Assembly (NCBI GenBank): GCA_016432285.1
Contig: CP066682.1
Coordinates: 188,273-252,272 of the forward strand
Direction of reading: 5' to 3'
Origin: Candidatus Kaiserbacteria bacterium
GTDB taxonomy: Bacteria; Patescibacteriota; Minisyncoccia; Phycocordibacterales; UBA2100
Length of the DNA: 64,000 bases
Under the pieces are notes generated by a model. The model saw nothing but the letters and a program-made list of their open reading frames with translations. It did no database searches and was not told the origin of the DNA. Shown here piece after piece: positions 2,486 to 21,498 of the stretch. Numbering within the stretch: position 1 is the stretch's first letter; each line of letters starts with the position of its first letter. The position numbers and the translations under genes were made by a program.

Positions 2486-3685
<1,200 letters not shown>

Positions 3686-4991: not shown

Positions 4992-5020
4992 TTGCACACT
5001 CGGAGGGAATAGTGCATACT
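4992..5020 (+). promoter_or_regulatory. promoter TTGCAC-17nt-TGcATACT for rpsJ
   Basis: -35 at 4992-4997; extended -10 at 5013-5020; 11 nt to the ATG. Confidence 0.45.
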
Positions 5021-5031
5021 CTGCGGGTTCT

Positions 5032-5448
5032 ATGACAGCGGAAGCGACAAAGAAGCCTCGCGCCTCGCGCGCGAAGACGGCCAAGAAGGCCGACGATTCC
5101 GCTGCACCCCAAGCTCCGGCCCGCGCCAAAAAAGCGGAGGCTGCGCACCGCCTTCGCATCAAGGTCCGCGCCTACGAGCACGGCGTCCTCGATAATTCCG
5201 TGAAGCAGATCATCGACACGGCTGCCCGCTACAATGCGGAAGTCGTTGGTCCGGTGCCGCTTCCGATCGACATCAAAAAGTACACCGTCAACCGCGCCGC
5301 ATTCATCGACAAAGACTCCCGCGAGCAGTTCGAGATGCGTATCCACAAGCGCATGATCGACATCCTCAACCCAGCACCGAAAGTCATCGAAGCCCTCACC
5401 AACATCGACCTCCCTTCGGGTGTTTCGATAGATGTAAAGATGATGTAG
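5032..5448 (+). CDS. rpsJ: 30S ribosomal protein S10, with ~40-aa Lys/Ala-rich N-terminal extension
   Basis: Core HRLRIKVRAYEH...VVGPVPLP...matches S10; the only in-frame Met is at 5032. Confidence 0.9.
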   Translation: MTAEATKKPRASRAKTAKKADDSAAPQAPARAKKAEAAHRLRIKVRAYEHGVLDNSVKQIIDTAARYNAEVVGPVPLPIDIKKYTVNRAAFIDKDSREQFEMRIHKRMIDILNPAPKVIEALTNIDLPSGVSIDVKMM

Positions 5449-5513
5449 ACGCTCGCCCCGTTAGATGCGCAGCTATCTAACCGGGGTGAAGATGATGTAG
5501 GTTCTCTGCGTGG

Positions 5514-5543
5514 AAAACGGCCCGCGCGAGCGGGCCGTTTTTT
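5514..5543 (+). terminator. rho-independent terminator after rpsJ
   Basis: aaaACGGCCCGCgcgaGCGGGCCGTtttttc; preceded by a second hairpin at 5456-5486. Confidence 0.65.
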
Positions 5544-5578
5544 CATAACGACAGGTCGACCCGTGCTAAGCTACCGGC

Positions 5579-6451
5579 ATGCGGGCGTTCACCTGCGGCC
5601 GGAGGCAACCAGGCGACACGTTCTATCTTGATTTCAATCCCTGTGTACGCGAGCCAAAAACGTGGAAGGAGGAAATCTATGCCGCCGCGAAGCTCCTGGC
5701 GAATCGTGCGGGCTCAAGGCCGATCTGGCTCGCTTCGAGCGGAGGAACAGACAGCGAAGTCATGTGTCGCGCCTTTTTTGACCAAGGAATTAATTTTTCA
5801 GTACTCACGGTAGAGCACATCGCTGGCACCAACCGTCACGACACGGCCTACGCACGTGCCTGGTGTCGCGCACGAGCGATTCCCCAGAAGATCGTTGAAC
5901 TCGACATGCCGGCGTTCCTCTCAAATGACGTTTTTGAATATACGCGAAAGGAGTACGTAACTGGAAACGTGTATCGCTACTTTCAAATTCGGTTGCTCGA
6001 GGAAATCGATCGCCTCGGAGGCTTCGGCGTCATTGGAAGCGGCGAACAGCTGTATCAAGCAGCGTCCGGCGCCGTTCCGTATCTCGAATACGAAGTGGGG
6101 ATTATGGCTCCGCTTCAGTGGAGCGAGCGGCACAACACCGAGCACGAGCCTTTTTTCTACATGAGCACACCCGAAATCTATCGGTCGTACATGGATATTC
6201 CGATCATCGCGCGCAACCTCCACTACCGCGACATCTTCATCCACCGCAAGAACGCGTTTCTCCTGAAGCGTATTGCCACAAATGCCGTGTGGGACGATTT
6301 GCGCGACAGACCGAAGTTCACCGGGTACGAGCACATACGGCCGCACCGCCTCGCCGCGCAAAAAAAGTTGAGGGGAATGTTCGGCGACCGCATACAAACG
6401 CTCCGGATTCCCGTCGATGAGGTGCGGAACCAGCTCGACGCGCGGTCATAA
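5579..6451 (+). CDS. PP-loop (SGGxDS) ATP pyrophosphatase family protein, unassigned subfamily
   Basis: IWLASSGGTDSEVM motif near residue 50; 290 aa; lacks the QueC zinc-Cys cluster and the TilS length. Confidence 0.6.
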   Translation: MRAFTCGRRQPGDTFYLDFNPCVREPKTWKEEIYAAAKLLANRAGSRPIWLASSGGTDSEVMCRAFFDQGINFSVLTVEHIAGTNRHDTAYARAWCRARAIPQKIVELDMPAFLSNDVFEYTRKEYVTGNVYRYFQIRLLEEIDRLGGFGVIGSGEQLYQAASGAVPYLEYEVGIMAPLQWSERHNTEHEPFFYMSTPEIYRSYMDIPIIARNLHYRDIFIHRKNAFLLKRIATNAVWDDLRDRPKFTGYEHIRPHRLAAQKKLRGMFGDRIQTLRIPVDEVRNQLDARS

Positions 6452-6498
6452 TCAGGAAACCTCTTACTACGTATGCAGAGTGATCGATAAAGAAGTAT

Positions 6499-6520
6499 CC
6501 CCGGCCGAAAGCGGCCGGGG
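6499..6520. terminator. hairpin between convergent genes (CCCCGGCCG-aaag-CGGCCGGGG)
   Basis: Perfect 9-bp GC stem in the 85-nt convergent intergenic space. Confidence 0.4.
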
Positions 6521-6535
6521 ACCAGTCGAAGGAGC

Positions 6536-7990
6536 CTATGTTCGCCGCCGCCATGTCGCGATGAGGACGATAATCCCCGACGCGAGCACGGAAAAGAGCG
6601 AACCGCCGATGATCATCGGCGTCACCTTGTAGAGGTTGCCGTAGGCGAAGATCGGCAACCCGATCACGATTGAGGTGATAATTCCCCAGAACATCCCCGG
6701 TTCACTCACCTGCTTTTTCAAGATCGTGATCACTGTCGGGAGCAGCGTGGATGCCCGCAGCGTTCCATAAAAGAGGAACAAGTACGGGATTGTCATCCCC
6801 GGGATATTCGCGATCGCGATGCCGCCGACGACGAGGACGAGCATCGCGCCGCGCGAGAACCACGAGAATCCGCGACGATCTAGGCTCTCGCCGTGACCAG
6901 CGCGTCCGGCGATATCGTGACCAGCGAGGCTTGATATCGCCGTCAGGTTGGAATCCAATGTCGACACAAGCCCCGAGAGGAGCAGGTAGACAAACATGAT
7001 AAGGATCCAGCCTGGCAGCAGTTTGCGCTCCACGAGATTCCCGACCACTTCAAGATTGACCCGCTGTGTGTCTACTGCAGTGAGCCCCATTCCCGCGCCA
7101 AGGAAGCCGAGAAGTGAGAGTGTAATCGGGACCACGCCGAATATGAATGCGGCGAGGATAAATGCCAGCCGTACGGAATCCTTGCGGATGGCAAATGCCC
7201 GCTGCCAGAAGCTTTGATCGCCAAATGGCCCTGCGAGCAGTCCGATTGTCACGGGGATCCCGAAGGTCAAGAACACCGTCAGGCCGTCTCCAGAGAAAAG
7301 GTCGGTAAATGTCCCGCTCTTCCCGTAGAGACCCTTCTCGACGGTCTCCCATCCGCCTCCGGCTATGATCGTCCACGGGACGATCAGTGCGCCGACGGCG
7401 TAGATCATGAGGAGCTGAAGCGAATCACTGACCATCGAGCCCTTGAATCCGGAGTAGAGCGAGTACCCGACAGGAATGATGGCAAGGATGATCGTGAGCG
7501 ACCAGTACGGCAGACCCGTCAGTACAGAGAGGACCTTCGCGCCCGCCAAGAGTTGGACGGCAAACGAACACGTCGCAAGCCCGATCAATGCGGTCAGGTA
7601 CACGTTTTGCACCCGGCCCGAGTACCGCTCCCGCATGCAACCGGAGAGGGTGTAGCCATCCGGAAAGAGCGAGCGGAGCTTCCACGCGAAGAAGGCGAAG
7701 ATCACCAGGGTCGCCATGTTGGGCACGACGAACCAGAAGACCCCCACCCACCCTTGCGTATAGGCTTTTTCGGCGGCGAGGAACAGGGCTGGTGCCCAGA
7801 TCCACGCCGCTGCGGTCGACATCGCGCCGACAAGCGGCCCGACTTCGTGGTTAGCCACCAAGAATTGCGGCTTGGTGAACTTCACCCCTCGCGAGAAGAA
7901 CCACACGATTCCCGAGAGAGGCAGCGCGAAGCCGAAAATAAGGAAGGCCACCCCCTGGACGGGAGTGAACATCTGTAGTGCGCGAATCAT
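6536..7990 (-). CDS. sodium:solute symporter family (SSF) transporter
   Basis: 484 aa, ~13 TM; SSF-type signature and overall PutP/PanF-like architecture. Confidence 0.85.
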   Translation of the reverse strand: MIRALQMFTPVQGVAFLIFGFALPLSGIVWFFSRGVKFTKPQFLVANHEVGPLVGAMSTAAAWIWAPALFLAAEKAYTQGWVGVFWFVVPNMATLVIFAFFAWKLRSLFPDGYTLSGCMRERYSGRVQNVYLTALIGLATCSFAVQLLAGAKVLSVLTGLPYWSLTIILAIIPVGYSLYSGFKGSMVSDSLQLLMIYAVGALIVPWTIIAGGGWETVEKGLYGKSGTFTDLFSGDGLTVFLTFGIPVTIGLLAGPFGDQSFWQRAFAIRKDSVRLAFILAAFIFGVVPITLSLLGFLGAGMGLTAVDTQRVNLEVVGNLVERKLLPGWILIMFVYLLLSGLVSTLDSNLTAISSLAGHDIAGRAGHGESLDRRGFSWFSRGAMLVLVVGGIAIANIPGMTIPYLFLFYGTLRASTLLPTVITILKKQVSEPGMFWGIITSIVIGLPIFAYGNLYKVTPMIIGGSLFSVLASGIIVLIATWRRRT

Positions 7991-8092
7991 TGTCAGAGCT
8001 CCTTTGCTGTTGGTTTTTTCGCGGCACCATGCCGCCTACGAGCGACACTATCACCGCGTGCAGGTCGGCACAAGAAATGGCGCAAAGAAAAA

Positions 8093-8121
8093 GCCCCGGG
8101 ACGTGCCCGAGGCTTCTTTTT
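8093..8121. terminator. bidirectional hairpin plus T/A-runs between the small peptide gene and the symporter gene
   Basis: GCCCCGGGacgtgCCCGAGGC followed by ttcttttt. Confidence 0.5.
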
Positions 8122-8137
8122 CCGAGTCGCGCCGGTT

Positions 8138-8353
8138 CTACCTGACCGGCTTACCGCTGACCGGAGTGGTCGCGCCGCGACACTTCGCTGCGCTGCACTT
8201 GTCAATGCTTTTAGCCTTGCGGCTGCCGCCCCGGCCGCAGGTGTTTGACGGACAGGTGACCGTGTTGAGTCCGCGCTGCGCCTGTACCGGTTTCGTGTCG
8301 ATCGTTGTCGCGGCGAGAGCGATCGCCGCAGAGAACAAGAGGCTCTTCATCAT
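8138..8353 (-). CDS. small secreted Cys-rich peptide (Sec signal peptide plus ~46-aa mature region with 6 Cys)
   Basis: GGAGG 7 nt upstream of ATGATG (start 8353; ORF-track start 8374 is GTG); signal MMKSLLFSAAIALAATTIDTKPVQA; own promoter-like TTGACG...TGcATATAA upstream. Confidence 0.5.
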   Translation of the reverse strand: MMKSLLFSAAIALAATTIDTKPVQAQRGLNTVTCPSNTCGRGGSRKAKSIDKCSAAKCRGATTPVSGKPVR

Positions 8354-8428
8354 CTCGGTATCCTCCGAACTCACCAGCGCGGGATGCGCCGATGGCAGCC
8401 TTTTATATGCATTACAATTGCTTGCTCG

Positions 8429-9529
8429 TCAAGAGAAGTCGTTGTGCGGTTCGTAGTACGTTTCGGGGGAAAGGTCGTCGTGGAAACCGAGCTTCTCGTC
8501 GATAAAGCTGTAGGAGTGCTGCTGGAGAAAGAGCGCCTTCAGCGAGCCGCGCTTGATCTTCGAATCACGGTACTCGCGATCCTTGGTGTAATCGTAAATG
8601 ATGTCCTTGGCGGGCCACTTGTAGGTGTTCCATGTGTCTTTGATGCGCTTGTCGGGATTCGCCATGCTCCACCGCTGGAAGTCGTCGGTGCCGAAGAAGT
8701 GCACGTACTTCGTATCGATATAGCGCTGATCAATGTTACGGATGTTGCGTGGAGCCGTATGCAAAAGCCGCCGCAGATGCACAGCCTGCCACTTGAGGGC
8801 GAAGTTGATCCACCACAGATAGAGAAAATTCGTTTCGATTGAGAGGGGAGCGGCGGCCTTGAGGCGCTCGAAGAGGTCGAGATAGAAATCAGTCGTCGCC
8901 TGGTCTCCGAGCGATCGGCCGAAAAAGTCTGAAAAAAGATCGCGGCTGTACGGCTTGTGGAGATGCTCATCACCGAGCTGGTGGATGAGCTTGCCGACCA
9001 CGTCCGATCCGAAGAGCTGATCGTTGTGCTCGCCATCGAGGAGCACGTCCTTGGTGCCGAGTCGGTGCGAAAAGAGCACCGATGAGTCGACGCGCAGTTT
9101 GCCGTGGATATGCTCCTCCCAAAATCGCGGATTTTCCGTGATTGACTCCTCGCTGAGGAGCACCACGATGCGCCTCTTCTGCTCGTTGCTCCCCATCTTG
9201 AGGAGCGATATGAGGACGAGCGTGCTATCGATGCCGCCCGACCACGAGACACACACATCCACGTCCGCCACATCGGCTTTGGAGAGGATTTCCCTCGCCC
9301 GCGCGTCGCATATTTCTTCGTAGGTTTTTGTGAATCCTTCAAATGCGGGGAGGGGAGCGAGAGCTTTGAGCTTGATCGGCATGCGAATCGTGGCCGTCCG
9401 ATCCACGATCACGACCCCGGGCCCGTAGATATCAAAAAAGCGCGAGAACTTCGTGAAGCCGGGAAAGCGGTCCGGGTCGGCGCGCAGGACCTTCCGCGGT
9501 CTGTAGTAGAGCAGCCGCATGAGCCTCAC
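8429..9529 (-). CDS. asparagine-synthetase-C-domain-like PP-loop ATP pyrophosphatase (no glutaminase domain)
   Basis: VDVCVSWSGGIDSTLVL (AsnB-type SGGxDS); GTG 9529 overlaps the upstream stop (GTGA); alternative ATG at 9520. Confidence 0.7.
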   Translation of the reverse strand: MRLMRLLYYRPRKVLRADPDRFPGFTKFSRFFDIYGPGVVIVDRTATIRMPIKLKALAPLPAFEGFTKTYEEICDARAREILSKADVADVDVCVSWSGGIDSTLVLISLLKMGSNEQKRRIVVLLSEESITENPRFWEEHIHGKLRVDSSVLFSHRLGTKDVLLDGEHNDQLFGSDVVGKLIHQLGDEHLHKPYSRDLFSDFFGRSLGDQATTDFYLDLFERLKAAAPLSIETNFLYLWWINFALKWQAVHLRRLLHTAPRNIRNIDQRYIDTKYVHFFGTDDFQRWSMANPDKRIKDTWNTYKWPAKDIIYDYTKDREYRDSKIKRGSLKALFLQQHSYSFIDEKLGFHDDLSPETYYEPHNDFS

Positions 9530-10218
9530 GAGAGCGTGCCGACGTACGGGTCGCGAAAGAAAGTCTCCGTGATCGCATCCAGTTCCGCCACAGCCTTCGC
9601 CTTCTTTATTTTGTTGAAGTAGATGATCCGCAGGAGCTCCGTCTTCGCGAGCTGCTCCGTAGCGATCTTTGATTTGAAAATAATGTCGTCGGCTGCCTGG
9701 CGGGGCGACAGGCCGGCGTAGTCGGCGTACAGGAGCACGTGCGGATATTCGGGAAGTACGACCTCGTCGTACCCCGCGTTCTTAAAAGAGAGCGCTTCGA
9801 TCCGTTTTTCGAGGTACACCGAATCCTGAAGCGAAATTCCCGTCTCGAATCGGAGGCGAAGACGGCTGATGTTGCGCATGATCGTTTGCACGACTTTCAA
9901 CTTGCCGACCGCGAGCGCGGACTTCTCTCGGATCTCTTTCGTAAGAAGCTTCGGTGGCGTTTGCTCAAAGAGTCGCTGCTCAAAGTTCCATGTCCACGTG
10001 GGGTACTCCGCAGGTCCCGTCGTCGTGAGAAAGAGGGAGTCGCGGTAGTGCGGATACTGGATCCCGTAGGCGCCGATCGTATCTCCCGTGCACTCGTTGA
10101 GAAAGACGATGCCGGGCGCGGTCGTATCGAAAGCGAGCACAATATGCGTGCCGTATTCCACAAGAATGCTCGGAAGAAAAGGTGGTTGCATACGATCGTT
10201 TGGATTCAATAGTATCAA
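9526..10218 (-). CDS. hypothetical protein, translationally coupled to the AsnB-like gene
   Basis: 230-aa ORF; 4-nt overlap with the downstream gene; no recognisable motif. Confidence 0.5.
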   Translation of the reverse strand: MILLNPNDRMQPPFLPSILVEYGTHIVLAFDTTAPGIVFLNECTGDTIGAYGIQYPHYRDSLFLTTTGPAEYPTWTWNFEQRLFEQTPPKLLTKEIREKSALAVGKLKVVQTIMRNISRLRLRFETGISLQDSVYLEKRIEALSFKNAGYDEVVLPEYPHVLLYADYAGLSPRQAADDIIFKSKIATEQLAKTELLRIIYFNKIKKAKAVAELDAITETFFRDPYVGTLS

Positions 10219-10282
10219 AATACTGCAACTTTATCCCCATGGATGCACTAGGTATTTGCGCTGCGCGTTCCATACTTGTTGT

Positions 10283-10564
10283 ATGAACCGGCTCGTGCGT
10301 GTGGGAAGGCAAGCAGGGAGAGTGGTACGCTCGCTTTCTCTCGTCGTAGCCGGGCTCTTCGTCGTTGCATTCGGGGTCGGCGGCAGAAATGCGGAATCCG
10401 ACGGACAAAATCAGGGTGTGCTCGCCAACATCAAGGACGAATTTACCGCGTACGCCGACGCACCCTATTCGCAGGCATCCTACTACTCCCAGGCGGACTA
10501 CGGCTGGTGGGGCGGTGGCGACGGCGGTGGCGACAGCGGCGACGCTGGCGGTGGGGACGCCTGA
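10283..10564 (+). CDS. module copy 1, small TM peptide (93 aa): basic N-terminus, TM helix, AYADAPY motif, Tyr-rich, GWWGG, Gly/Asp-rich acidic tail
   Basis: Internal ATG at 10283 in ORF 10088..10564; paralogous to 17141..17392 and 49292..49570. Confidence 0.55.
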   Translation: MNRLVRVGRQAGRVVRSLSLVVAGLFVVAFGVGGRNAESDGQNQGVLANIKDEFTAYADAPYSQASYYSQADYGWWGGGDGGGDSGDAGGGDA

Positions 10565-10571
10565 TACACCT

Positions 10572-11741
10572 ATGCAACCGAGCATCAAGATCATCCTCTC
10601 GGCCGTTTTGATTCTCGGCGCCCTCTCTTTTGCCGCCTTCTACTACTTCGCGATCGCGCCATTGAGTCAGCCGTCGGACGAGGGGCGACCGCGCGCCGAG
10701 AGTCTGACGGAGGCCATGCAAAAGCAGCTCGCGGGCGACCGGACGGGAGCCTATCAAAGCGCGCAGCGGCAGATCGCGGAAGGCGGCACCGAAGAAGATA
10801 CGGTGCTTGCGAAAATCACCGCGGCCAATTCGCTTTTCCAGATTGCGACTACGACCGAGGGCAGAATTGCCGCGATGCGGATACTAGCAAACGCGTATTC
10901 GGAAGGACAGAGCCCGCAGAGCAAAGCACTTGTCCTCAATGCGCTCGTGTGGACGCTGATTTTTAATGCCAATACCGAGCCTGTTACGCTCGCCGCGTTT
11001 GGTTTCAATGAGTTCCAGCCGTTTGCGGTCGAAGGTGCCAACGGAAAGTCGTTTCAGAACCTCCTGAAGCAATCGATCAGTCTCGCGCCGACACGCCGGG
11101 CGTACTACATGCGTGCAGTCGTCGCGTCGCGAGAGCTCGAGCGCAATTTCGCACCGGACTCCGCAAAGCTCCTGTCCGCCGCCTCTTCCGATTCGGTGCG
11201 CGAAATTGCGCAGAACATTCTCAAATTTATCGAGCAGGGAGATGCGCTCGCGCGGGCAGCGCCGCTCGACTCGGGGATAGAGGAACTCGACGACATCACG
11301 GAAGCGCAAAATCAAATCTACCGAGGGCTCGCGCTCTCCGCGGTCGCACTTGTCGACTCCTCGCAGCTTTCAAGCGCCCTCGGTGCTTTCCAAGCGGTCT
11401 TGGATACGGCCAGAAGCGGGGAGCCCACCGTGGCCGTGAATGTGATGGCCGCATACGCGCACCTGTATGCCGGTCGGATCGCGGCTGCAGTGGGTGGATC
11501 GGCGAATACGGCAGTTGCTCGCTCGCACCTTGCCGACTTCGCGGCATCCGCAGAGGCATCGCCGAAGGATTACGTCAAGATTTACGAAATGTTCCAGTGG
11601 CTCCGAGGCGGCGCTTCGATTCCCGCATCCGAGCAGGCGGAGAGCAGGCAGTATCGCCTCTACCAAACGTACTCATCGCTCGCGGCGCTCTCTCCCGATT
11701 TCAAAAATTTCCTCGCTTCAGTCGGTTGGCAGTTCGAGTAG
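10572..11741 (+). CDS. module copy 1, ~390-aa N-terminally anchored protein (paralog of 17408..18595 and 49578..50771)
   Basis: ATG 8 nt after the peptide stop; N-terminal TM; shared early motif LQ.L..G.Y.AA and C-terminal F(K)NFL.S.GW.(F/L)E. Confidence 0.6.
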   Translation: MQPSIKIILSAVLILGALSFAAFYYFAIAPLSQPSDEGRPRAESLTEAMQKQLAGDRTGAYQSAQRQIAEGGTEEDTVLAKITAANSLFQIATTTEGRIAAMRILANAYSEGQSPQSKALVLNALVWTLIFNANTEPVTLAAFGFNEFQPFAVEGANGKSFQNLLKQSISLAPTRRAYYMRAVVASRELERNFAPDSAKLLSAASSDSVREIAQNILKFIEQGDALARAAPLDSGIEELDDITEAQNQIYRGLALSAVALVDSSQLSSALGAFQAVLDTARSGEPTVAVNVMAAYAHLYAGRIAAAVGGSANTAVARSHLADFAASAEASPKDYVKIYEMFQWLRGGASIPASEQAESRQYRLYQTYSSLAALSPDFKNFLASVGWQFE

Positions 11742-11941
11742 CCTCTTCATAAAAAGAGAGGGAGTCGGCGCGGTGTGTTTTGTGCAGCGCCGACCCCCCT
11801 TATGGTGCGCGCCGCAGGGCGCGCAGTGGTGTAGGAGCTTGCGCTCCGTAAATCCAGCGTACATTTCGCGGAATGAAACGTCAATGACGAATCACTGACG
11901 CCCGTTCCGGCGGACAGTTTCCCGTCCGCCGGTCCGGGCAG

Positions 11942-12142
11942 CTACCTCGCGGCAGGTGCCTTCTTGATGCGCTCCAGCACTGCGCGCTGGAACACCGCTT
12001 CCGCGCTCGCGTCGTCTTCCGAGGACGCGGTCGCTTCAGCAGAAGTACCCCTGCCCGACACCACGGCAATGGCCGTAATGACGTTGGCGACGGCGATGAC
12101 CGCCACCAACGTGATGAGCAGAGCCATTCCAAGTACCCGCAT
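11942..12142 (-). CDS. small membrane protein (66 aa)
   Basis: Strong SD: GGAGG 4 nt upstream of ATG 12142; hydrophobic segment; GC hairpin downstream at 11907-11932. Confidence 0.4.
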   Translation of the reverse strand: MRVLGMALLITLVAVIAVANVITAIAVVSGRGTSAEATASSEDDASAEAVFQRAVLERIKKAPAAR

Positions 12143-12240
12143 TGCACCTCCATACGGGTTTACGGCCTATCGAAGCCACCACAGCCTCGATTCAGCCACA
12201 CCGACCCTAACGCCCTCCCGCCTCCCAGTCAACTTTTTTC

Positions 12241-12270
12241 TTGACTTTGAGTGCAAAATCAATGCATAAT
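12241..12270 (+). promoter_or_regulatory. promoter TTGACT-18nt-TGcATAAT for the small secreted protein gene
   Basis: -35 at 12241-12246; extended -10 at 12263-12270. Confidence 0.4.
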
Positions 12271-13845: not shown

Positions 13846-15551
13846 GCCTTCTTTTCGTCCTTCTCAACGCAATAGATTTCGTTGGCGAAGGTTGGTACGA
13901 AGAATCGGCTGGTCTCCGCGTTGTACGCGATCTTGTTGGTTATCCGTTCTGTAAGGGTGATAGAAGCCTGTTCCTTCCCGGTGCGTGCGTCGATTTCCGT
14001 CAGCCGACCGGTGTTCGATCCAATGAAGACGCTGTCGCCGATAATCTTCGGGCTCGCGAAAATGCGGGCGCCGCTGCTCCAGCGCCATACCTCCTGGAAG
14101 CTCGAAAGGTCAACGCAGTAGAGATTCTTATCGAGCGACCCGATAATCGCCGTGTTCTCATAGAGCGCGGGAGTCGCGTAGAAGCCGTACTCCGCCTGGA
14201 ATCGGCCGGCCTCTGTGCCGGTGCGGCGATCAACGAAGTAAAGAGTTCCAGCGGTGCTGCCGAAGATCACACGGTCGTGATTCCTGTCGTATGCAAAAGA
14301 CTCCTTGATGTCGTTACTGCTGAAACCAACGTCAAGTTCCGCGTCCGATGGTTCGGCCGGCGAAAACTTCCACTTCAGCGCCCCCGTCTTGGCATCGAGG
14401 AGGTACGCGGCACCGTCGTTTGATCCGACGATAACTTCGCGGGTGTCTTTTAGGTAAAGCGGCGAAGAGTGCGTATAGCAGGGCATCTCCCGGTATTCCC
14501 ATATTTTTTTTCCGCTGTGCGCATCGAGCGCCACGACCCCTCCCCGCTTTCTCCAGAGGCCGAACTCAAGGCCCACGAAGACAAGATTCAAATCGACAGC
14601 GACGGCGGGGGAGGAGCCGATCCAATCTGCTTCAAGAAATACCCACTTTCGCTTGCCGGACGTCCGGTCGAGGGCGTAGAAGTTGCCGTCGTATCCACCG
14701 AAAAAGACGCTCTCGCCAAGGAGTGCGGGGGATGAAAAGATCCCCTTTCCCTTCATGTGCAGCAGAATGCGGTACGACCAAGCCACTTGACCCGTGTCCT
14801 GCCGGATCGCCCACATGGTCCCGTCGTCAGAGCCAACGTATACATGCGTGTCGTCAATCGCTGGTTCGGATTTTGGCACCACGTAAAAAAAGCTCGGGTT
14901 CTTGGCGGCGAATTTCCAGCGAACCATGAAGGGCCTTGAATGCACGGGCTCCTTGTGGGTCAAATTGCTGACGCCGAGAGTTTCACTAAAGTCATCGAGC
15001 GTAAATACGGAGAAAAGTTCGATGTTCTTTTTCCGCAGGTATTCGTAGTGCTCAAGATCTCGGAACCGTATCAGCGTCCACACGGCCTGCACCCGGTGTC
15101 CGAGCGCCTCCAGCACTTCCACCTGTCGCTCGATGCTCTTGCCGCTGTTTATCAGATCATCGACCAGAATGATCGGAGCGCCCGGAGCGATTTCGCCTTC
15201 AATGGCGCGCATCAATCCATCCTTTTTTCGCGACTTACGAATAAAAAATCCGGAAGTCTTCTTTTTTGATACCTCTCCCGCGTGGACGGTGAGCGCAGTA
15301 ACGAGTGTGATAGCGGCTGTCTCTATTCCTCCTATTTGGAAGGGGAAACGTTCGCGGAATGTATCCCAAAAAATCTCGGCAATATCCTCGAGCGCATCGC
15401 TTCGCAAGAGAATACGTCGCAGGTCAAAGAGCCAGCCGCTCTCCTTTAATTTTTTCCTACTCGAGACGATGTTCTCATGCTCGGCCCGGACATACGCGCT
15501 GTTCTCAATGAGTTCTTTTAGGTGCGCTTTATGTTCTTCGATTCCATCCAT
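13842..15551 (-). CDS. fusion protein: N-terminal type-I phosphoribosyltransferase (OPRTase-like) domain plus C-terminal PQQ-like beta-propeller repeats
   Basis: PRPP-binding motif PIILVDDLINSGKSI; about 7 repeats of G(T/N)hY(A/C)hD..(T/S)G...W; minus-strand TGCTATAGT promoter at 15575-15583. Confidence 0.65.
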   Translation of the reverse strand: MDGIEEHKAHLKELIENSAYVRAEHENIVSSRKKLKESGWLFDLRRILLRSDALEDIAEIFWDTFRERFPFQIGGIETAAITLVTALTVHAGEVSKKKTSGFFIRKSRKKDGLMRAIEGEIAPGAPIILVDDLINSGKSIERQVEVLEALGHRVQAVWTLIRFRDLEHYEYLRKKNIELFSVFTLDDFSETLGVSNLTHKEPVHSRPFMVRWKFAAKNPSFFYVVPKSEPAIDDTHVYVGSDDGTMWAIRQDTGQVAWSYRILLHMKGKGIFSSPALLGESVFFGGYDGNFYALDRTSGKRKWVFLEADWIGSSPAVAVDLNLVFVGLEFGLWRKRGGVVALDAHSGKKIWEYREMPCYTHSSPLYLKDTREVIVGSNDGAAYLLDAKTGALKWKFSPAEPSDAELDVGFSSNDIKESFAYDRNHDRVIFGSTAGTLYFVDRRTGTEAGRFQAEYGFYATPALYENTAIIGSLDKNLYCVDLSSFQEVWRWSSGARIFASPKIIGDSVFIGSNTGRLTEIDARTGKEQASITLTERITNKIAYNAETSRFFVPTFANEIYCVEKDEKKA

Positions 15552-15611
15552 ACGAGCGATTTCGAGGCCGGTATACTATAGCACCGCGCCCACAGTATAA
15601 TAATTTATCGT

Positions 15612-16904
15612 ATGAGCCCCGGTGCTTCATTCTTTGACTCTCGCGCCGAGCAGAGCTTTCTGCGTTTTTATCGTCGTATCTTTTCGATTGCTGAGATAGA
15701 AGGAAGTAGAGTGCTGCAGTGGGTGTTTGGCGCGACGATCCTCTCATACTTCATCGCATTTGATTCTCGGCTTTACTCCGACGCGCTCACCGTAGATGCC
15801 TTTTTATCGGGTACGCACCGATGCTGGCCATACTTTCAATCGTGCGGTGAGTGGCTCTTTCTGCGTGCGCTCCCAGCCGGCTACTCCCAAATGCTGCTTT
15901 ACATGGCGCTCTTCGGTCTTCTGGCGCTTGCCGTGTATCTCATGTACAAGAAAGAATGGGTACTGGCGCATATCGCGCTCATCCCGAGTTTCCTCTGGCA
16001 CTTCCTCGGTTCGTTCGTCCTTAGCGGAGAGCTTGCGGGCAATTATGACTACTACCTTTTTCTTCTTGCGTTCGTGTTGCTTTTTGTGCCATACAAGGAG
16101 TTCTTTCTCAAACTTCTCTTGGTGCTCTTCTATTTCCTGGCATCGTTATCGAAAATTCACGAATCGTGGATTCTCGGCACGTACTTCTCCTCGTTGAAGA
16201 CAGGATTGCCACTCTTTCCAGACTGGTCGATACCGATTTGGACCAACCTCGTGATCTTTATGGAAATGGTCGCGGCGTGGTTCCTGCTCTCGGGCCGGAG
16301 GCTACTACAGCGTGCCGTATTCATTTTTTTCGTCGCTTTTCATCTCTACTCCGGCATTTTTGTGGGATTCCGGTATCCGGCCACCGTGCTGCCGACACTC
16401 CTCATCCTCTTCGGTCCTCTCTACGCCTATACGCCGCCGCCGCTTACGCGTCGCGCACTCGCCGGGTGGATACTGGTCTCTCTCATGTTTATGGCACAAC
16501 TTTCGCCACTCCTCGTGCGGGGCGATGAGAAACTCACACTCGAAGCAAATAAGTTCGGTCTCTACATGTTTGAATCCAACCACCAGTGCGTCTCAAGCGC
16601 GACGGTATTTCTGAAGGATGGTACGCAATACGAAGTTCGGGCCGAGAGCGTTTCCGCCCGGTCGCGGTGCGATCCGTACTATTACTGGTTTTCGCTCCGC
16701 GCGCCGTGCGAGAGGGATCAAGCAATTGGGCGAATTGTGTGGACGTTTGACCACTCGATCAACGGCGGTCCGTTTCTCCGGATCGTCGACGAGCAGGACG
16801 CGTGCTCGCTTTCGTATGATCCCTTTCGACACAATGCGTGGATCAAAACGGAAACCGACGCTCCAGAGGTTATCGGATGGCCCGTAGAAAATGTCTATGA
16901 TTGA
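15612..16904 (+). CDS. polytopic membrane protein with C-terminal Cys-containing soluble domain, unknown function
   Basis: ~8 hydrophobic helices then a soluble ~140 aa; TATAAT at 15596-15601, 10 nt upstream of the ATG. Confidence 0.55.
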   Translation: MSPGASFFDSRAEQSFLRFYRRIFSIAEIEGSRVLQWVFGATILSYFIAFDSRLYSDALTVDAFLSGTHRCWPYFQSCGEWLFLRALPAGYSQMLLYMALFGLLALAVYLMYKKEWVLAHIALIPSFLWHFLGSFVLSGELAGNYDYYLFLLAFVLLFVPYKEFFLKLLLVLFYFLASLSKIHESWILGTYFSSLKTGLPLFPDWSIPIWTNLVIFMEMVAAWFLLSGRRLLQRAVFIFFVAFHLYSGIFVGFRYPATVLPTLLILFGPLYAYTPPPLTRRALAGWILVSLMFMAQLSPLLVRGDEKLTLEANKFGLYMFESNHQCVSSATVFLKDGTQYEVRAESVSARSRCDPYYYWFSLRAPCERDQAIGRIVWTFDHSINGGPFLRIVDEQDACSLSYDPFRHNAWIKTETDAPEVIGWPVENVYD

Positions 16905-17109
16905 AGCAACGTCGAGCATCCCGATTCTGGCGCTAACCGGGCTCGAAGGAAACGCGCCGACCGCACTGTCCCCTCTACAGGTCTTTCTTGCTTCCCAATT
17001 CGATACGATCGCCGCATTCTGGTGGACGATCAGCGTCATCGTCCTCCTCACCGTCGTTATTCGCGCGTTTTCTGCGATACATAAGCAGTTTCCCCAGGGT
17101 GATCGTTGA
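16897..17109 (+). CDS. possible small single-TM protein overlapping the stop of the upstream gene
   Basis: ATGATTGA overlap with the upstream stop; one hydrophobic helix; weak support. Confidence 0.25.
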   Translation: MIEATSSIPILALTGLEGNAPTALSPLQVFLASQFDTIAAFWWTISVIVLLTVVIRAFSAIHKQFPQGDR

Positions 17110-17140
17110 CGATTTGGCGTTCAGCACCCATGATTCAAGT

Positions 17141-17392
17141 ATGGAAGTCTCCCTCCGGCGGGTCCTGAAGATCCTCGTTTACGCTCTCATGCTTGCCGCG
17201 GGGGTCATTCTCGCGTTCGTGTCATATCGGGATAAGGAAAACGCGACAGGGGGTTTAGTATCGACTGCCTACGCGGATGCGCCGTATGCGCAGAGCGCGT
17301 ATTACGGACAGGGGGGATATGGGTGGTGGGGCGGCGACGGCGGCGACGGAGACGATGACGGCGATGATGATAGTGGCGATGGCGATAGCTGA
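17141..17392 (+). CDS. module copy 2, small TM peptide (83 aa) with AYADAPY, GWWGG and poly-Gly/Asp tail
   Basis: Internal ATG 17141; motifs STAYADAPYAQSAYYGQGGYGWWGGDGGDGDDDGDDDSGDGDS. Confidence 0.55.
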   Translation: MEVSLRRVLKILVYALMLAAGVILAFVSYRDKENATGGLVSTAYADAPYAQSAYYGQGGYGWWGGDGGDGDDDGDDDSGDGDS

Positions 17393-17407
17393 TTTTACTG
17401 ATTCACC

Positions 17408-18595
17408 ATGCCAGAAGCAGGAGAAGTACAGCAGCCTCAAACGCACTACGGTCGATCGATCTTGATCGGCAGTACCGTACTTCTCGTTGTCGGATTCGGA
17501 GTCGCGTACTTTCTCATCGTCATGCAGGTCCCCTCGCGCGGGGGAACTACCGGCGGAGTAGGCAGATTGCAGCCACAAACGCTCCAGCAGCTCAAAAAGG
17601 CTGGCAACTACGAGGCCGCGCTTGCGGAATACGAACGGATCATGAGCGATCCCCTTAAGGACGCGAATGAGAAAGGGTTTGCGGTCATCAGTGGAACCAA
17701 CCTCAAGTTCACGCTGACGGCGGACATAAAAGACATGATCGAGGACGTGCAGCGATTAAAGGAGGTCGTGCTTGATCCGTCGGTGGAGACTCGCGTGCGT
17801 GTCGAGGCGCTCAATACGCTTTCGGCATCCGTCTGCCGATCCGGACGAGATCCGATCATTTTCGATGAGCTCTATAAGGATGAGCCATTCAAGCGATACC
17901 TCGTGCCGGGCGATCCCGATCTCTCCGCGCGTCTCATGGCGGAGTGGTCATATGACATGTCGCCCACGTCCTTTGCCGCGATTCGTATTGCACGTTGGTA
18001 CTCCGATCAAGTATTCAGAAACGGCACGCTCTCGGGAGAGAAGGTGAGTGAATACACGGCAGAAGCAGAAAAGTATATGGAGATCGCGGGGCAGCTCGTG
18101 GAAAAGGAGCTCAAGCGCTCCACGGATCGCACGCGGAGCATTACTTATATCGCGTATCGTATGTGGACGGCGATCACCGTTGGCCGACTTGCGACGGTGA
18201 AGGACGAGTACCGGGCGCAGTACAAAACCGAATTCGAAGACTTACTGAACTTCCTCACGGCCAATAAGAACGTGGGCGTTTTCGATTACCTGTACCTGGT
18301 GCGCGAGCACTACGCGCGCTTCATGATCCGCATAGACGGCAACACCGCCGGAGCAAAGGCCCAGCTCGACATCCTTGCGCGCGAGCTCCAAGAGTTTCCA
18401 ATACCGGACTCCAGTACCTACGTGAGACTTATGCGCAACGAGTCTACGTACAATCCCGGCGGATACCTCTGGAACAACTACAAAACCCTCATGTCGATCT
18501 CGCCGAGTTTCAAAGCGACGGTAGAGGAGCTCCTCATTCCCGACCCTGAGACTATCGGCAGTTCTGCGGCACCCCTGGAAACAGCGGAGTTTTAA
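17408..18595 (+). CDS. module copy 2, ~395-aa N-terminally anchored protein
   Basis: ATG 15 nt after the peptide stop; N-terminal TM; LQQLKKAGNYEAALAEY motif shared with paralogs. Confidence 0.6.
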   Translation: MPEAGEVQQPQTHYGRSILIGSTVLLVVGFGVAYFLIVMQVPSRGGTTGGVGRLQPQTLQQLKKAGNYEAALAEYERIMSDPLKDANEKGFAVISGTNLKFTLTADIKDMIEDVQRLKEVVLDPSVETRVRVEALNTLSASVCRSGRDPIIFDELYKDEPFKRYLVPGDPDLSARLMAEWSYDMSPTSFAAIRIARWYSDQVFRNGTLSGEKVSEYTAEAEKYMEIAGQLVEKELKRSTDRTRSITYIAYRMWTAITVGRLATVKDEYRAQYKTEFEDLLNFLTANKNVGVFDYLYLVREHYARFMIRIDGNTAGAKAQLDILARELQEFPIPDSSTYVRLMRNESTYNPGGYLWNNYKTLMSISPSFKATVEELLIPDPETIGSSAAPLETAEF

Positions 18596-18599
18596 TCTT

Positions 18600-19382
18600 G
18601 TGCGAGTCGCACTCCTGTCATTACGAGGGGGCCGGTTGGCAGCCGTTGCTGTAGTGCTTGGCGTATTGGCATTCGTTGGAAGCAGCGACATGACAGTACT
18701 TCTCCAAAACGCTCAGTTACTTTTCTTTCCGTCTGCCGCCTCAGCGTATAACTTTGGCAATCAGCACTTCGACGCGCGCAGTGGATACGAATACGACATC
18801 GACCGGGCGGAGTCGCTCTACCAAGAAGCGCTCCGCATCGACCCACAGTTTCCCTACGCGCGACACCAGCTCGCCCGCATCTCATTTTTGAGGGGCGATT
18901 TCAAGAGCGCGCTTGTGCTGATCAACGAAGAGCTCTTCACGAATCCCGATCCCTCTCCGTCCTCGTACTACATCCGGGGCCTCATTGAGGGGTACGCAGG
19001 ACGCTACGACGACGCAGCCAAAAGCTACGAGCGCTATCTGGAGCGTGATCCGCGCAATTGGGCGGCGATCAATGATTACGCGTGGGTGCTCCTGCGGGCA
19101 GGGAGGTCAGAGGATGCCGCGATCGCCACCGCCGAGGGCCTCGCATATTTTCCCGAGAATCCATGGCTTTTGAACAGCAACGCGACCGCGCTTTTTGAGC
19201 TTGGCCTCACGAAGGAGGCGAGCGCCGTCATACAAAAGGCGGGGGAGAGCGCAGCTTCCATCACCGAACCAATGTGGCTCACGGCGTATCCCGGCAACGA
19301 TCCTCGGATCGCGCGACAGGGAATCGAGACGCTCCAGCGTGCGATTGCGTCCAATAAGCTCCGCTTTGCCGATCCCGAATAA
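18600..19382 (+). CDS. TPR-repeat protein with N-terminal TM/signal
   Basis: GTG start 4 nt after the upstream stop; repeats of Y..G.......A...Y...L..DP. Confidence 0.6.
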   Translation: MRVALLSLRGGRLAAVAVVLGVLAFVGSSDMTVLLQNAQLLFFPSAASAYNFGNQHFDARSGYEYDIDRAESLYQEALRIDPQFPYARHQLARISFLRGDFKSALVLINEELFTNPDPSPSSYYIRGLIEGYAGRYDDAAKSYERYLERDPRNWAAINDYAWVLLRAGRSEDAAIATAEGLAYFPENPWLLNSNATALFELGLTKEASAVIQKAGESAASITEPMWLTAYPGNDPRIARQGIETLQRAIASNKLRFADPE

Positions 19383-19416
19383 TTTTCCGCACTGACTGTC
19401 AACAGCGCGAAGAAAA

Positions 19417-19911
19417 TTGCGCTCCATGAAGCGCGAGCGTGTGTATACTGAAGTTATGAGTTCGCGCTTCGCGACCTACGCGTTTCTCGTTTTTCTCGCG
19501 CTCACACTGCTCGTTTCTTTCGCCTCGTTTGCATACGCGCAGACCGACGAAGAGCTCCGCTCCACTGTCCGTGCGGCGATTCTCTCGGATCCACGCTCGG
19601 CAAGTATGAGCGAAGCGGAAATCGACGCGATGGTTGAAGCTCTTTCGGGTCAGGCGGCGGAGCAAGGCGTAACGGCCTCCGACATAACGTGGCAGCCGCA
19701 GCAGAGCGAGTTCCCTGCGACTTCCAAAGGGGAGCCGACCTCCTGCGCCTACCCCACACTCCTCTGCTCGCTCAATGAGGCGTTCGGCCTATCCGGATCG
19801 TCGATTCTGTTACCCACAGCTCTCGGGGTGGTCTCGGCGCTCCTCCTTGCGGTTGTTGCTATGATGATTGAACACCACCGCAAAGAGCGGTTCTCCGCAC
19901 AACGCGCATGA
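19417..19911 (+). CDS. secreted/tail-anchored small protein, paralog A (signal peptide, DEELRSTVRAAILSDPRSASMSEAEIDAMVEAL core, C-terminal TM ...MMIEHHRK)
   Basis: ~50% identical to 20906..21358; start uncertain (19417, 19426 or 19456). Confidence 0.5.
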   Translation: MRSMKRERVYTEVMSSRFATYAFLVFLALTLLVSFASFAYAQTDEELRSTVRAAILSDPRSASMSEAEIDAMVEALSGQAAEQGVTASDITWQPQQSEFPATSKGEPTSCAYPTLLCSLNEAFGLSGSSILLPTALGVVSALLLAVVAMMIEHHRKERFSAQRA

Positions 19912-20894
19912 TCCCTACCAGTACGTCCAGGTCAGTCCGAGCTCGCCTGATTGTTGCCGCGGCTCTCACGATCATCGCTCTCCTTGTATACGCGGCGACG
20001 GTTTCGAGCGACCGTGCGGGTTTCGCATCTTCGGAAGTGCAATTCGCCGACGCCTCGCAAGGCGGCGCGCTCATCGTGCCAGCTTCGTGCCCCTCGAATC
20101 CACACTACGCGGGCGAGTGCAGCGGCGGAGGTGGCGGAGGTGGCAGCAACAATCCACCCGCAGCGCCCTCAAGCAATGCCTGCATCATCGCGCTCTCTCC
20201 CTCCACCATCGTGAGCGGCCAGAGCGCGTTCATGGGCTGGTCATCCACGTACGCGATTTTCGGCATTCCCTTCGTCGTGTCGGGCACGATCACGCCGACT
20301 CCTGGGGCGGTTGCCGATGCTGGCGTAACAACCGTCAACCCGACACAGACGACCACCTACAGCGGCACTTTTACCCCAAGCGGTAGCGTGCAGGGCATAC
20401 CGCAGAGCTGGCTCACGCCCGTCAATTGTTCGGCGGCGCTCACGGTCCTCACGAGCGCACCGGGTGCGGGAGCGTGCGCGCAGGTCAACTTCTGCAACGG
20501 CAGCGCGCTCTACCAGCAGCAAACCAACTGCACTGACGTGCTCGTGCAGCAATGCCCCTACGGCTGCTCCAACGGTGCATGCCAGGGAGCCGCAGCACCC
20601 ACCGCGTTCATCAGAGCGGTGCCCTCGCTCGTGCGCGCTGGCGAGCAGAGCACGATCTCGTGGAGCTCCTCCAACGCGGCTTCGTGCAACGTCACGAGCG
20701 TACCGGCCGTCGGAGGGACCCCGTGGTCGGGTCTCTCGGGGAGTCAGGATACGCCAATCGGCTACCAGACCACCTTTACGCTCTCGTGCCTCGGCCTCAA
20801 CGGCTCCACGATCAACCGCTCTGCGGTCGTCGACATCCTCCCGGTCTTCTGCGAAGTCGGCGCACCGGATTGCGATATTCAGCCCGGACAATAA
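19908..20894 (+). CDS. membrane-anchored secreted Cys-rich protein (328 aa)
   Basis: ATGA overlap with the upstream gene; N-terminal TM; poly-Gly; ~18 Cys; Thr/Ser-rich. Confidence 0.5.
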   Translation: MIPTSTSRSVRARLIVAAALTIIALLVYAATVSSDRAGFASSEVQFADASQGGALIVPASCPSNPHYAGECSGGGGGGGSNNPPAAPSSNACIIALSPSTIVSGQSAFMGWSSTYAIFGIPFVVSGTITPTPGAVADAGVTTVNPTQTTTYSGTFTPSGSVQGIPQSWLTPVNCSAALTVLTSAPGAGACAQVNFCNGSALYQQQTNCTDVLVQQCPYGCSNGACQGAAAPTAFIRAVPSLVRAGEQSTISWSSSNAASCNVTSVPAVGGTPWSGLSGSQDTPIGYQTTFTLSCLGLNGSTINRSAVVDILPVFCEVGAPDCDIQPGQ

Positions 20895-20905
20895 TCCTCA
20901 ATACT

Positions 20906-21358
20906 ATGCACGCATATCTGAAACTTCGCACCGCATTCATCGTTACGCTTGCCCTCATCACCCTGAGCGCGCTTCCGCTCTTTGCCCATGCGCAGAGCGA
21001 CGAGGAGCTGCGCTCCACGATTCGCGCCGCAATCGTCGCAGATCCCCGCTCGGCCAGCATGAGTGAGGCGGAAATCGACGTGATGGTGGAGGCACTCGCC
21101 ACACAGGCGAAGGCCACCGGCGTCACGGCACGCGACGTCGAGAGTGCCGCGCGGGCGAGTCAGAATACACAGCGCCGCTCACCGTACGCGAGCGAATGCA
21201 CGAGCTTCATCTGCAAGGTCAACGAGGCGTTCGGCATCACCGGCAACGCAAGTGTGATCGCGGTTGCCATGGGCGTGACCGCCGCCGTGCTCCTCTTTGT
21301 GATCGGCATGCTCATCGAACACCATCGCCGCAAGCTCACAGGCTCCAATCCGCTCTAG
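20906..21358 (+). CDS. paralog A-prime of 19417..19911
   Basis: Shared motifs AQSDEELRSTIRAAIVADPRSASMSEAEIDVMVEAL, NEAFGITG and C-terminal TM MLIEHHRRK. Confidence 0.5.
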   Translation: MHAYLKLRTAFIVTLALITLSALPLFAHAQSDEELRSTIRAAIVADPRSASMSEAEIDVMVEALATQAKATGVTARDVESAARASQNTQRRSPYASECTSFICKVNEAFGITGNASVIAVAMGVTAAVLLFVIGMLIEHHRRKLTGSNPL

Positions 21359-21375
21359 CGCTCTCGTGTGTGGGG

Positions 21376-21404
21376 TTGCATTTCACGGGGCGCGCCTGTA
21401 TAGT
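21376..21404 (+). promoter_or_regulatory. promoter TTGCAT-17nt-TGTATAGT for the rplC operon
   Basis: -35 at 21376-21381; extended -10 at 21397-21404. Confidence 0.45.
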
Positions 21405-21410
21405 GCCCGC

Positions 21411-21487
21411 ACATTCTCTTTGAGAATGTCCCATGTCCCCATACGGGACCAATGGTTCGGGAAAACGCCCGCCATTGTGGGCGTTTT
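21411..21487 (+). promoter_or_regulatory. structured 5' leader of the rplC operon: three hairpins, the last (AACGCCCgccattgtGGGCGTTttgt) terminator-like, 12 nt before the ATG
   Basis: Hairpins at 21411-21429, 21435-21449 and 21463-21487 read directly; candidate attenuator. Confidence 0.35.
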
Positions 21488-21498
21488 GTCATAACACT

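Follow-up and report, generated by a model that had tools for sequence, protein, structure and literature searches.

A divided S10-spc cluster and a conserved, attenuator-like leader upstream of rplC in a Kaiserbacteria genome

Introduction

Leader RNAs through which ribosomal-protein operons regulate themselves are well studied in Escherichia coli. The bacteria of the candidate phyla radiation (CPR) represent a substantial part of the diversity of bacteria, and their ribosomes are unusual; we found no report of an autoregulatory ribosomal-protein leader from them in the literature. Here, we describe the S10-spc cluster, and above all the leader of rplC (the gene for ribosomal protein L3), in a 64-kb stretch of a Candidatus Kaiserbacteria genome (contig CP066682.1, positions 188,273 to 252,272; the whole stretch is called the window below). 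The closest described system is the E. coli S10 leader, an RNA that interacts with ribosomal protein L4 and mediates both L4/NusA-dependent attenuation and translational repression. This leader precedes rpsJ and is confined to Gammaproteobacteria; in general, too, the leaders by which ribosomal-protein operons regulate themselves mostly occur in narrow lineages (PMC3616713). Of the 20 ribosomal-leader candidates tabulated in an earlier survey, L4-Archaeoglobi alone lies upstream of rplC (Eckert & Weinberg 2020, PMC7247131), and a 2024 survey of 50 genomes reports an rpsJ motif that is unrelated to the rplC motif presented here (PMC11109978).

A sequence-only reading of the window had likened the rplC leader to the L4-mediated attenuator of E. 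coli. We find that this likeness holds for the predicted mechanism and fails for homology. Both leaders precede an operon encoding L3, L4, L23 and L2, and in both a hairpin is followed by an intrinsic terminator just before the first gene; the negative feedback by a ribosomal protein that underlies the E. coli system (PMC3616713) would be expected of the rplC leader too. However, the E. coli leader contains hairpins HA-HE and HG and acts through stabilisation of a NusA-dependent pause, whereas a predicted antiterminator takes that place in the rplC leader. Moreover, the E. coli element sits 5' of rpsJ, while that of the window sits 5' of rplC, with rpsJ 16 kb off behind a nearly leaderless promoter. 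In sequence and structure, no convincing similarity links the rplC leader to HD, HE or HG, only the short words CUACGU and CAAUG in permuted order, and none of the ribosomal-leader families in Rfam 15 matched the window leader at a cut-off of E<=10. The L4-Archaeoglobi candidate also has a ligand (L4) assigned by precedent, but it is archaeal and a different motif. Documented leader motifs that mimic ribosomal RNA (rRNA) likewise combine one binding motif with different expression platforms across genomes; their ligands are known, whereas those considered for the rplC motif are candidates.

The gene order also has precedents. In cyanobacteria, plastids and archaea, rpsJ is linked to tuf and rplC opens its own operon. 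The relatives of the window are similar, with rpsJ as the last gene after tuf, usually a terminator-like hairpin 3' of it, and rplC beginning a new unit. The window differs from this arrangement by two genes between tuf and rpsJ and by the 16 kb from rpsJ to rplC, and the lineage typically goes beyond it with two extra breakpoints, L2|S19 and L5|S14. Gene-order splitting, ribosomal leaders and terminator/antiterminator attenuators are all of known kinds; the rplC motif itself is, as judged by Rfam 15 and the literature searched, new and lies outside the E. coli leader family.

The reading that we favour, with a probability of about 0.55, is that the S10-spc cluster of this lineage is organised as separate units and that the rplC leader would act as a feedback-controlled attenuator, with a protein of the rplC operon as its ligand.

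A conserved RNA motif in the rplC leader

For comparison, 160 loci around L3 homologues were fetched from genomes and metagenomes (designated by L numbers) and their cluster genes placed by tblastn. The nearest public matches to the L3 of the window are two Paceibacterota/Kaiserbacteria metagenome-assembled genomes, L001 (78% identity) and L002 (75%). The rplC start at 21499 is the one conserved among relatives. An in-frame ATG at 21433 extends the open reading frame (ORF) by 22 codons; it lies inside the leader motif, it is not conserved, and among relatives the spacing of motif and ATG does not stay in multiples of three. Automatic annotation could thus miscall the L3 start at this position.

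All features described in the sequence-only reading were found where it had placed them, by sequence, Pfam and fold checks. Among them are a promoter belonging to rplC itself and a leader with three hairpins, the last of which is terminator-like. The promoter, TTGCAT-17 nt-TGTATAGT, spans 21376-21404 on the plus strand (TTGCAT at 21376-21381, TGTATAGT at 21397-21404) and is followed, on the same strand, by a 5'-terminal hairpin whose sequence is not conserved (21411-21429), by the conserved motif (21430-21456) and by a hairpin and U-tract resembling an intrinsic terminator (21462-21489; -20 kcal/mol, U4), which ends about 10 nt 5' of the rplC ATG. All ten members whose sequence reaches far enough 5' have an element of the form TTGC(A/T)N-17-TATA(G/C)T, placed 25-67 nt 5' of the motif. 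Between terminator and ATG there is no room for a promoter and nothing is conserved, so rplC expression requires read-through.

Aligned rplC upstream regions of the closest relatives share the invariant word GACCAATGG. The motif as a whole follows the consensus 5'-sCYA-N-SU-[P1 hairpin of 10-60 nt]-AS-C(A/G/U)(A/C)-UGGs-3', which in the window reads CCCA-U-GU-CCC(cauac)GGG-AC-CAA-UGG. Its outer helix P0 (CYA/UGG; CCCA/UGG in the window) is joined to P1 by a 1x3 internal loop, of which the first 3'-side base is an invariant C. The core comprises about 11 bp and this loop, with no multi-helix junction or pseudoknot.

Several lines of evidence support the structure: pair counts in two alignments, unconstrained folds and covariance-model matches. 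Pairs were counted in a hand-made core alignment, with the P1 interior masked with N, and the shuffle statistics are indicative only: in alignment A5 (16 sequences) 88.1% of positions are paired vs 72.0% when shuffled (0/500 reach the observed value) and 18-45% in slid controls, and in alignment A7 (21 sequences) 88.3% vs 70.1% (again 0/500) and 22-47%. Within the same hand-made alignment, both partners change in six of the seven P1 pairs, and the loop-adjacent pair flips from G-C to C-G in L066, L076 and L137, which are labelled Chitinophagales or Chitinophagaceae. When each sequence is folded singly and without constraints, P0 appears in 20 of 22 and the SU/AS pairs in 19 of 22; thus, the structure is not an artefact of the hand alignment.

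Two covariance models were run over both strands of 2.1 Mb with a cut-off of E<0.05, and all matches fell directly upstream of rplC on the coding strand. These amount to 24 loci (22 distinct sequences), the window included; four loci are labelled Chitinophagales, and L030, L055 and L120 were caught although they lay outside the training sets. The motif is missing where rpsJ abuts rplC, and at motif loci with a known S10 position the gap is at least 111 nt. Conservation in related genomes had been named beforehand as one point on which the claim of a leader would stand or fall: the motif is kept, specific to its position in the 5' untranslated region, and shows compensatory changes in P1, which are the general marks of a ribosomal leader. 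No Rfam 15 family matched the window leaders or eight related loci, the rplC leader found no match in a plasmid collection, and full-text literature searches for an rplC leader gave nothing relevant.

Other conserved elements precede rplC elsewhere. A second, different rplC leader (GGGGCTAGCGAAGGGCAATGTTGAGAA...TTCTCATTACTGTCCGCAAAACGCC) is conserved in another Paceibacteria subgroup (L085, about 1150-1417; L156, L023, L046), where it lies behind a -10-like element, CTGTTAGTATAG; it is not in Rfam 15. In the Chitinophagales loci L047, L048, L049, L051, L054, L061, L067, L135 and L146, the rpsJ-rplC spacer measures 250-360 nt and carries a long conserved element with the words AGTTCTTATAAA…CATCTCTCAA…AAGAGCTCTG…CAAGCCATTCAGGGTTTGTTTAC…GGAAAAGGTCGGTGGCAAACGGGGATTGA; L051, the one long-spacer locus scanned, gave no Rfam match.

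A predicted terminator and an alternative helix

A strong hairpin with a U-rich tail follows the motif in 16/19 sequences examined. The 14 nt from the bulge onward are complementary to the apical part of this hairpin in 17/17 sequences tested, with a summed duplex energy of -200.6 kcal/mol vs -107 +/- 9.7 for shuffled sequences (individual p 0.004-0.15). This complementarity covaries: it is mostly CAAUGG/CCAUUG, but CACUAG/CUAGUG in L082 and UGGUA/UACCR in L002 and L072, while the sequences that we term group 2 pair GGGCACAA with UUGUGCUC.

In the window, complementarity and minimum-free-energy (MFE) folding predict an antiterminator helix at 21450-21477 on the plus strand, in which CAAUGG-uu-CGGG pairs with CCCG-CCAUUG. 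The nascent leader (21411-21478) has as its MFE fold P1 together with this antiterminator (21450-21461 with 21468-21477), and the complete leader folds as P0/P1 plus the terminator, at -38.3 kcal/mol. Because the antiterminator shares UGG with P0, and its 5' arm and loop with the terminator, it excludes both. Among group-1 sequences the nascent antiterminator is the MFE fold in 9/11. The leader therefore has, according to the folds, two features of an attenuator, namely an intrinsic terminator between promoter and start codon and an alternative helix that is mutually exclusive with it. No terminator follows the motif in L030, L055, L066, L076, L120 and L137, where 5-25 nt separate it from the start codon; this points to a translational platform for the same putative binding site.

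The cluster is expanded at three junctions

By Pfam, the ribosomal-protein genes of the window follow the standard order on the plus strand, in three blocks: the closely packed rplC-rplD-rplW-rplB (L3, L4, L23, L2; 21499-24021), rpsS...rplE (24045-27611) and rpsN-rpsH-rplF-rplR-rpsE-rplO-secY (27885-31718). To see how these genes are spaced in relatives, we surveyed the junctions of 83 loci with L3 identity of at least 53%. Gaps were measured from tblastn end-points, an error that expansions of hundreds to thousands of nucleotides far exceed. The S10|L3 junction is longer than 150 nt in 25/66 loci and longer than 500 nt in 14, with a maximum of 9.8 kb. L2|S19 is the junction most often expanded (>150 nt in 36/49, median 795 nt), and L5|S14 exceeds 150 nt in 20/31. 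All other junctions have medians of 3-86 nt, with none or almost none above 500 nt. The commonly expanded junctions are thus only these three, the same places that the sequence-only reading had flagged, and the genes inserted there are heterogeneous and lie on both strands.

The earlier claim that the S10-spc unit is broken into several is supported by these three expansions, by the conserved promoters and leaders of rplC and rpsN, and by the minus-strand genes between rpsJ and rplC, because of which the two genes cannot share one transcript. We propose that the cluster of the lineage would comprise separate transcription units, tuf-rpsJ, the four genes rplC-rplD-rplW-rplB, rpsS...rplE and rpsN...secY, with rpsJ alone forming its own unit in the window genome. 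Each would have its own promoter of a lineage type (TTGCAN or TTGACT, 17 nt, TATAnT), and the unit boundaries would be tolerated landing sites for unrelated genes. The 64-kb window was scanned on both strands for the pattern TTG[AC][ACT]-N16-18-TATA[GCT]T: four occurrences were found against 0.2 expected from first-order Markov simulations, 0/200 of which reach four, and the rplC and rpsN sites are two of the four. The three-hotspot pattern matters practically, since the S10-spc cluster serves as a syntenic block in the binning and phylogenomics of uncultured genomes.

From sequence reading, the inserts contain toxin-antitoxin-like pairs, a GIY-YIG-like ORF, a reverse-transcriptase-like ORF, large surface proteins and small unknown ORFs. 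The rplE-rpsN gaps of L002 and L081 carry RelE/YoeB-like toxin-antitoxin pairs on the minus strand, that of L023 carries the reverse-transcriptase-like ORF, with a YADD motif, and the GIY-YIG-like ORF, bounded by inverted repeats, lies at about 9850-10150 in L081.

The rpsS and rpsN boundaries

A promoter-like sequence, TTGGTA-18-TATAGT, extends across the end of rplB and the 23-nt spacer before rpsS (24005-24034, plus strand). Within it the 8-mer TGTATAGT of the rplC promoter recurs at 24027-24034, as had been noticed from the letters of the window, and ends 10 nt before the rpsS ATG at 24045. L083 retains the TATAGT about 10 nt before this ATG, and so does L003, where the upstream sequence is rearranged; other relatives have TTGAC(G/T)-17-TAnnAT before rpsS, with a short hairpin and a U-tract.

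The rplE-rpsN spacer is longer (27612-27884, 273 nt) and holds the hairpin, the promoter and the leader of about 180 nt that had been predicted, all on the plus strand. Directly 3' of rplE lies a GC-rich hairpin with a weak U-tract (27614-27641; equivalents in L001 and L003), followed by the promoter TTGACT-17 nt-TATAGT (27673-27701), a promoter-proximal hairpin, GCCUC-GUAA-GGGGC, with U6 after it (27704-27731), and a structured 127-nt domain (27739-27865; fold z = -3.15) with the core GGAGGAAGCGUC..UAACCC[hairpin]GGGUGCCAGAGCUUCC, closed by a long inverted repeat. Upstream of rpsN, TTGACT-N17/18-TAnnAT is found across the clade. L001, L002, L003 and L081 share the promoter, a GCCUC-GNRA-like-GGGGC hairpin with a U-tract, and a core GAAGAAGCKUC..UAAC..[hairpin]..UGCAAGAGCUUC, and they keep them even though rplE and the promoter are separated by 0.5-1.8 kb of other genes, part of them on the minus strand. 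Pair counts over five sequences are suggestive of a conserved structure, with 86% paired vs 79% shuffled and seven pairs changing on both sides, mostly owing to L001. We also considered that the domain at 27739-27865 might be a mere inserted palindromic repeat and rejected this, as the core is conserved in those four relatives; a repeated 17-mer is confined to the outer arms.

A repeat, CCYTTCGAC-N2-4-GCTCAGGR(T)AA, occurs in translation-gene leaders of several CPR genomes: those of tuf and rpsN in the window (27739-27755, minus; 27846-27865, plus; about 2340-2365, minus), those of rplB and rpsN in L030 (11716 and 17966), and further in L072 (9804), L094 (1281, minus) and L138 (9964). The L072 rplC leader has its copy inside P1. 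Its association with leaders is unproven, the sampling being biased to ribosomal-protein clusters.

In relatives, a short hairpin and a U-tract come immediately after the promoters of operon-initial ribosomal-protein genes, and then the AUG within about 10 nt, with no Shine-Dalgarno sequence. The pattern was seen upstream of rpsS in L001, L008, L013 and L027, and upstream of rpsN in L008, L014, L028 and L040. It may be a general architecture of mRNA 5' ends in the lineage that acts as a stabiliser, an attenuator or a signal for Shine-Dalgarno-independent initiation.

A model for control of the rplC unit, and its alternatives

How could the rplC leader work? In our model, P0 and P1 with the 1x3 loop and its invariant C would form the putative binding site of a ribosomal protein encoded downstream. 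As long as rRNA titrates the free protein, the motif's 3' side (CAAUGG and the next bases) would pair with the top of the terminator, so that the antiterminator forms first and RNA polymerase reads into rplC. Free protein in excess would clamp P0/P1, no antiterminator would form, the terminator would fold, and transcription would stop. Where a genome has the motif next to the start codon, the same binding would instead block translation initiation. We infer the use of the promoters, the termination, the protein binding and the identity of the binder; the most likely ligands are L4, by precedent, or L3, by position, and L23 and L2 may also be candidates if rpsS starts a new unit.

A broader proposal is more tentative, and we place it slightly below an even chance: the motif would be recognised by L4 or L3 as a primary rRNA-binding protein and would define a class of ribosomal leaders common to Patescibacteria and Chitinophagales-labelled genomes, with modular platforms (terminator/antiterminator or start-codon occlusion, depending on the genome) and unrelated to the gammaproteobacterial S10 leader. 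If this is true, the leader would be, as far as we found, the first autoregulatory ribosomal-protein RNA proposed for CPR bacteria, and together the rplC and rpsN leaders would show that CPR genomes have re-partitioned S10-spc into independently regulated modules. The motif is small and sharply defined, and with its terminator/antiterminator platform it offers a testable handle on ribosomal-protein balance in CPR. The identity of the binder would show which protein became the regulator once rpsJ had left the operon.

Candidate mimicries of 23S rRNA were tried in turn. The motif could resemble the H96 apical loop in the L3 region (E. coli UGUCAU-GCCA-AUGGCA against CAUG..CCAAUGG), but the G and C of the would-be loop covary as a pair (GC:18, CG:3). 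For H18, in the L4 region, a regular-expression match at 281-359 is a plain 13-bp helix in the Rfam consensus. A resemblance of GACCAAUGGUUCG to GACCAAGGGUUCC near position 1300 is extended only by a part that is not conserved in the family, and stands at chance level. A separation of rplC from rplD at motif loci, which would favour L3 as the ligand, was also looked for; the two genes are not separated, and the larger rplC-rplD gaps have the appearance of Lys-rich coding sequence, as would fit L4 proteins extended at their N termini.

Several observations weigh against our reading. The comparison with E. coli 23S found no rRNA mimicry by the motif, so the ligand is a guess. P0 has 3-4 bp and little covariation of its own, and the shuffle statistics overstate significance, given a hand-made, masked alignment and phylogenetically related sequences. 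The hairpin of L031 is without a U-tract, and that of L001 has a poor one. The six group-2 sequences have an alternative helix that begins immediately 3' of UGG, and its competitor is the terminator base rather than P0; the switch logic is therefore not uniform. At the unit boundaries of the window, the 23-nt rplB|rpsS spacer lacks a terminator and the U-tract of the hairpin 3' of rplE is weak, which makes read-through between units likely, and in the window itself read-through at both rplB|rpsS and rplE|rpsN is quite possible. Finally, the plus-strand gene upstream of rplC ends at 21358, only 17 nt before the rplC promoter and without a terminator of its own, as in L001, and the rplC terminator could also serve that gene.

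This last arrangement speaks for a model in which the operon is split, yet the rplC leader simply stops or insulates transcription from upstream and acts as a leaky, constitutive attenuator, while the motif serves RNA processing or stability, for instance as an RNase site or a structured 5' end. Promoter-proximal hairpins with U-tracts before rpsS and rpsN in relatives add to it, as they suggest a general feature of mRNA 5' ends in the lineage. We nevertheless consider it unlikely: an element for stability or termination needs neither an invariant bulged C, nor invariant A-U/U-A pairs, nor a covarying complementarity between motif and terminator, and the six loci with the motif beside the start codon have it without a terminator. 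The lack of a terminator in the rplB-rpsS spacer and of a good U-tract 3' of rplE would fit a single S10-spc transcript from rplC on, read through past weak or unused rpsS and rpsN sites, with rpsJ alone separate. This appears improbable, because the clade as a whole keeps TTGACT-N17-TAnnAT upstream of rpsN, also where minus-strand genes have been inserted ahead of it, because the inserted genes of relatives sit at L2|S19 and L5|S14, and because TATAGT before rpsS survives in L083 and in the rearranged L003.

An aptamer-like core with interchangeable platforms, either a terminator or proximity to the start codon, is what a riboswitch for a small molecule, or an element sensing tRNA or another RNA, would look like. 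However, the conserved core is very small, P1 varies from 10 to 60 nt in length, no multi-helix junction or pseudoknot is present, and the motif occurs only before rplC and matches no Rfam family, so that we give this model very little weight. Still less credible is a DNA operator for a dimeric transcription factor, made up by the inverted repeat CCAATGG...CCATTGG 3' of the promoter. The two conserved words are indeed reverse complements and change together in L082, but their spacing ranges from about 16 to over 50 nt and their register is shifted in L002 and L072 (UGGUA/UACCR). Moreover, the covariation in P1 is that of an RNA helix, the motif keeps strictly to one strand, and some members have no second word.

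rpsJ and the interval before rplC

In the window, tuf (EF-Tu; 2486-3685, plus strand) is separated from rpsJ by a helix-turn-helix gene (3747-4259) and a membrane protein gene (4474-4980), whereas in relatives with an S10|L3 split rpsJ lies 20-150 nt directly 3' of tuf. The rpsJ gene (5032-5448, plus strand) had been credited with its own promoter, a strong terminator and an N-terminal extension of S10, and each of these was recovered. The promoter-like site, TTGCAC-17 nt-TGcATACT, spans 4992-5020 on the plus strand (TTGCAC at 4992-4997, TGcATACT at 5013-5020) and fits the lineage consensus TTGCAN-17-TATA(G/C)T, which 10/10 rplC leaders show. Its -10 element ends just 11 nt 5' of the ATG, so the mRNA would be almost leaderless. 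Downstream, AAAACGGCCCGC-GCGA-GCGGGCCGTTTTTT folds into an intrinsic terminator of the -20 kcal/mol class with a U-tract (5514-5545, plus strand), and a terminator-like hairpin also lies 3' of rpsJ in seven of the relatives read (L008, L014, L017, L023, L027, L031, L130). Taken together, rpsJ is probably monocistronic in this genome.

The S10 domain covers residues 42-136 in Pfam, preceded by a Lys/Ala-rich extension of about 40 amino acids; the rpsJ sequence has no in-frame start codon nearer to the domain. This extension aligns in L023, L034, L031 and L046, and the alignments to several relatives begin at residues 1-12. The last 12 nt of rpsJ (AAGATGATGTAG, 5437-5448) recur at 5489-5500, with a palindromic hairpin of about 37 nt (5453-5489) between the two copies of AAGATGATGTAG; the arrangement resembles either a small insertion that duplicated its target or a local duplication.

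The 16-kb interval between rpsJ and rplC (5579-21358) holds genes on both strands, among which Pfam identifies an SSF symporter (6536-7990, minus), a PQQ-propeller protein (13842-15551, minus) and a TPR protein (18600-19382, plus); the remaining genes are of unknown function. The distance of 16 kb agrees with the first description of the window, but calling these genes accessory does not: much of the interval is a syntenic block conserved in the closest relatives, L001 and L002, and not a recent acquisition, so the rpsJ|rplC split is old. In L001 and L002 a single gene lies just upstream of rplC, and it is matched by each of two ORFs of the window (19417-19911 and 20552-21358), which suggests that the gene was duplicated in tandem here.

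Other features of the window

The G+C content is 59% across the window. Between rpsE and rplO (29402-30440), rpmD, the gene for L30, is missing, and the Pfam map places rplO directly 3' of rpsE. Absence of L30 is a recognised hallmark of CPR bacteria, and the lack of rpmD thus fits the taxonomic placement of this genome. Above threshold, an Rfam 15 scan of the window found only a transfer-messenger RNA and one tRNA: the former lies at 51921-52321 on the minus strand and has the tag peptide ANKVAQGVLSPIQVKDLQFAYAIA, and the latter is a tRNA-Ile with anticodon UAU at 58727-58799.

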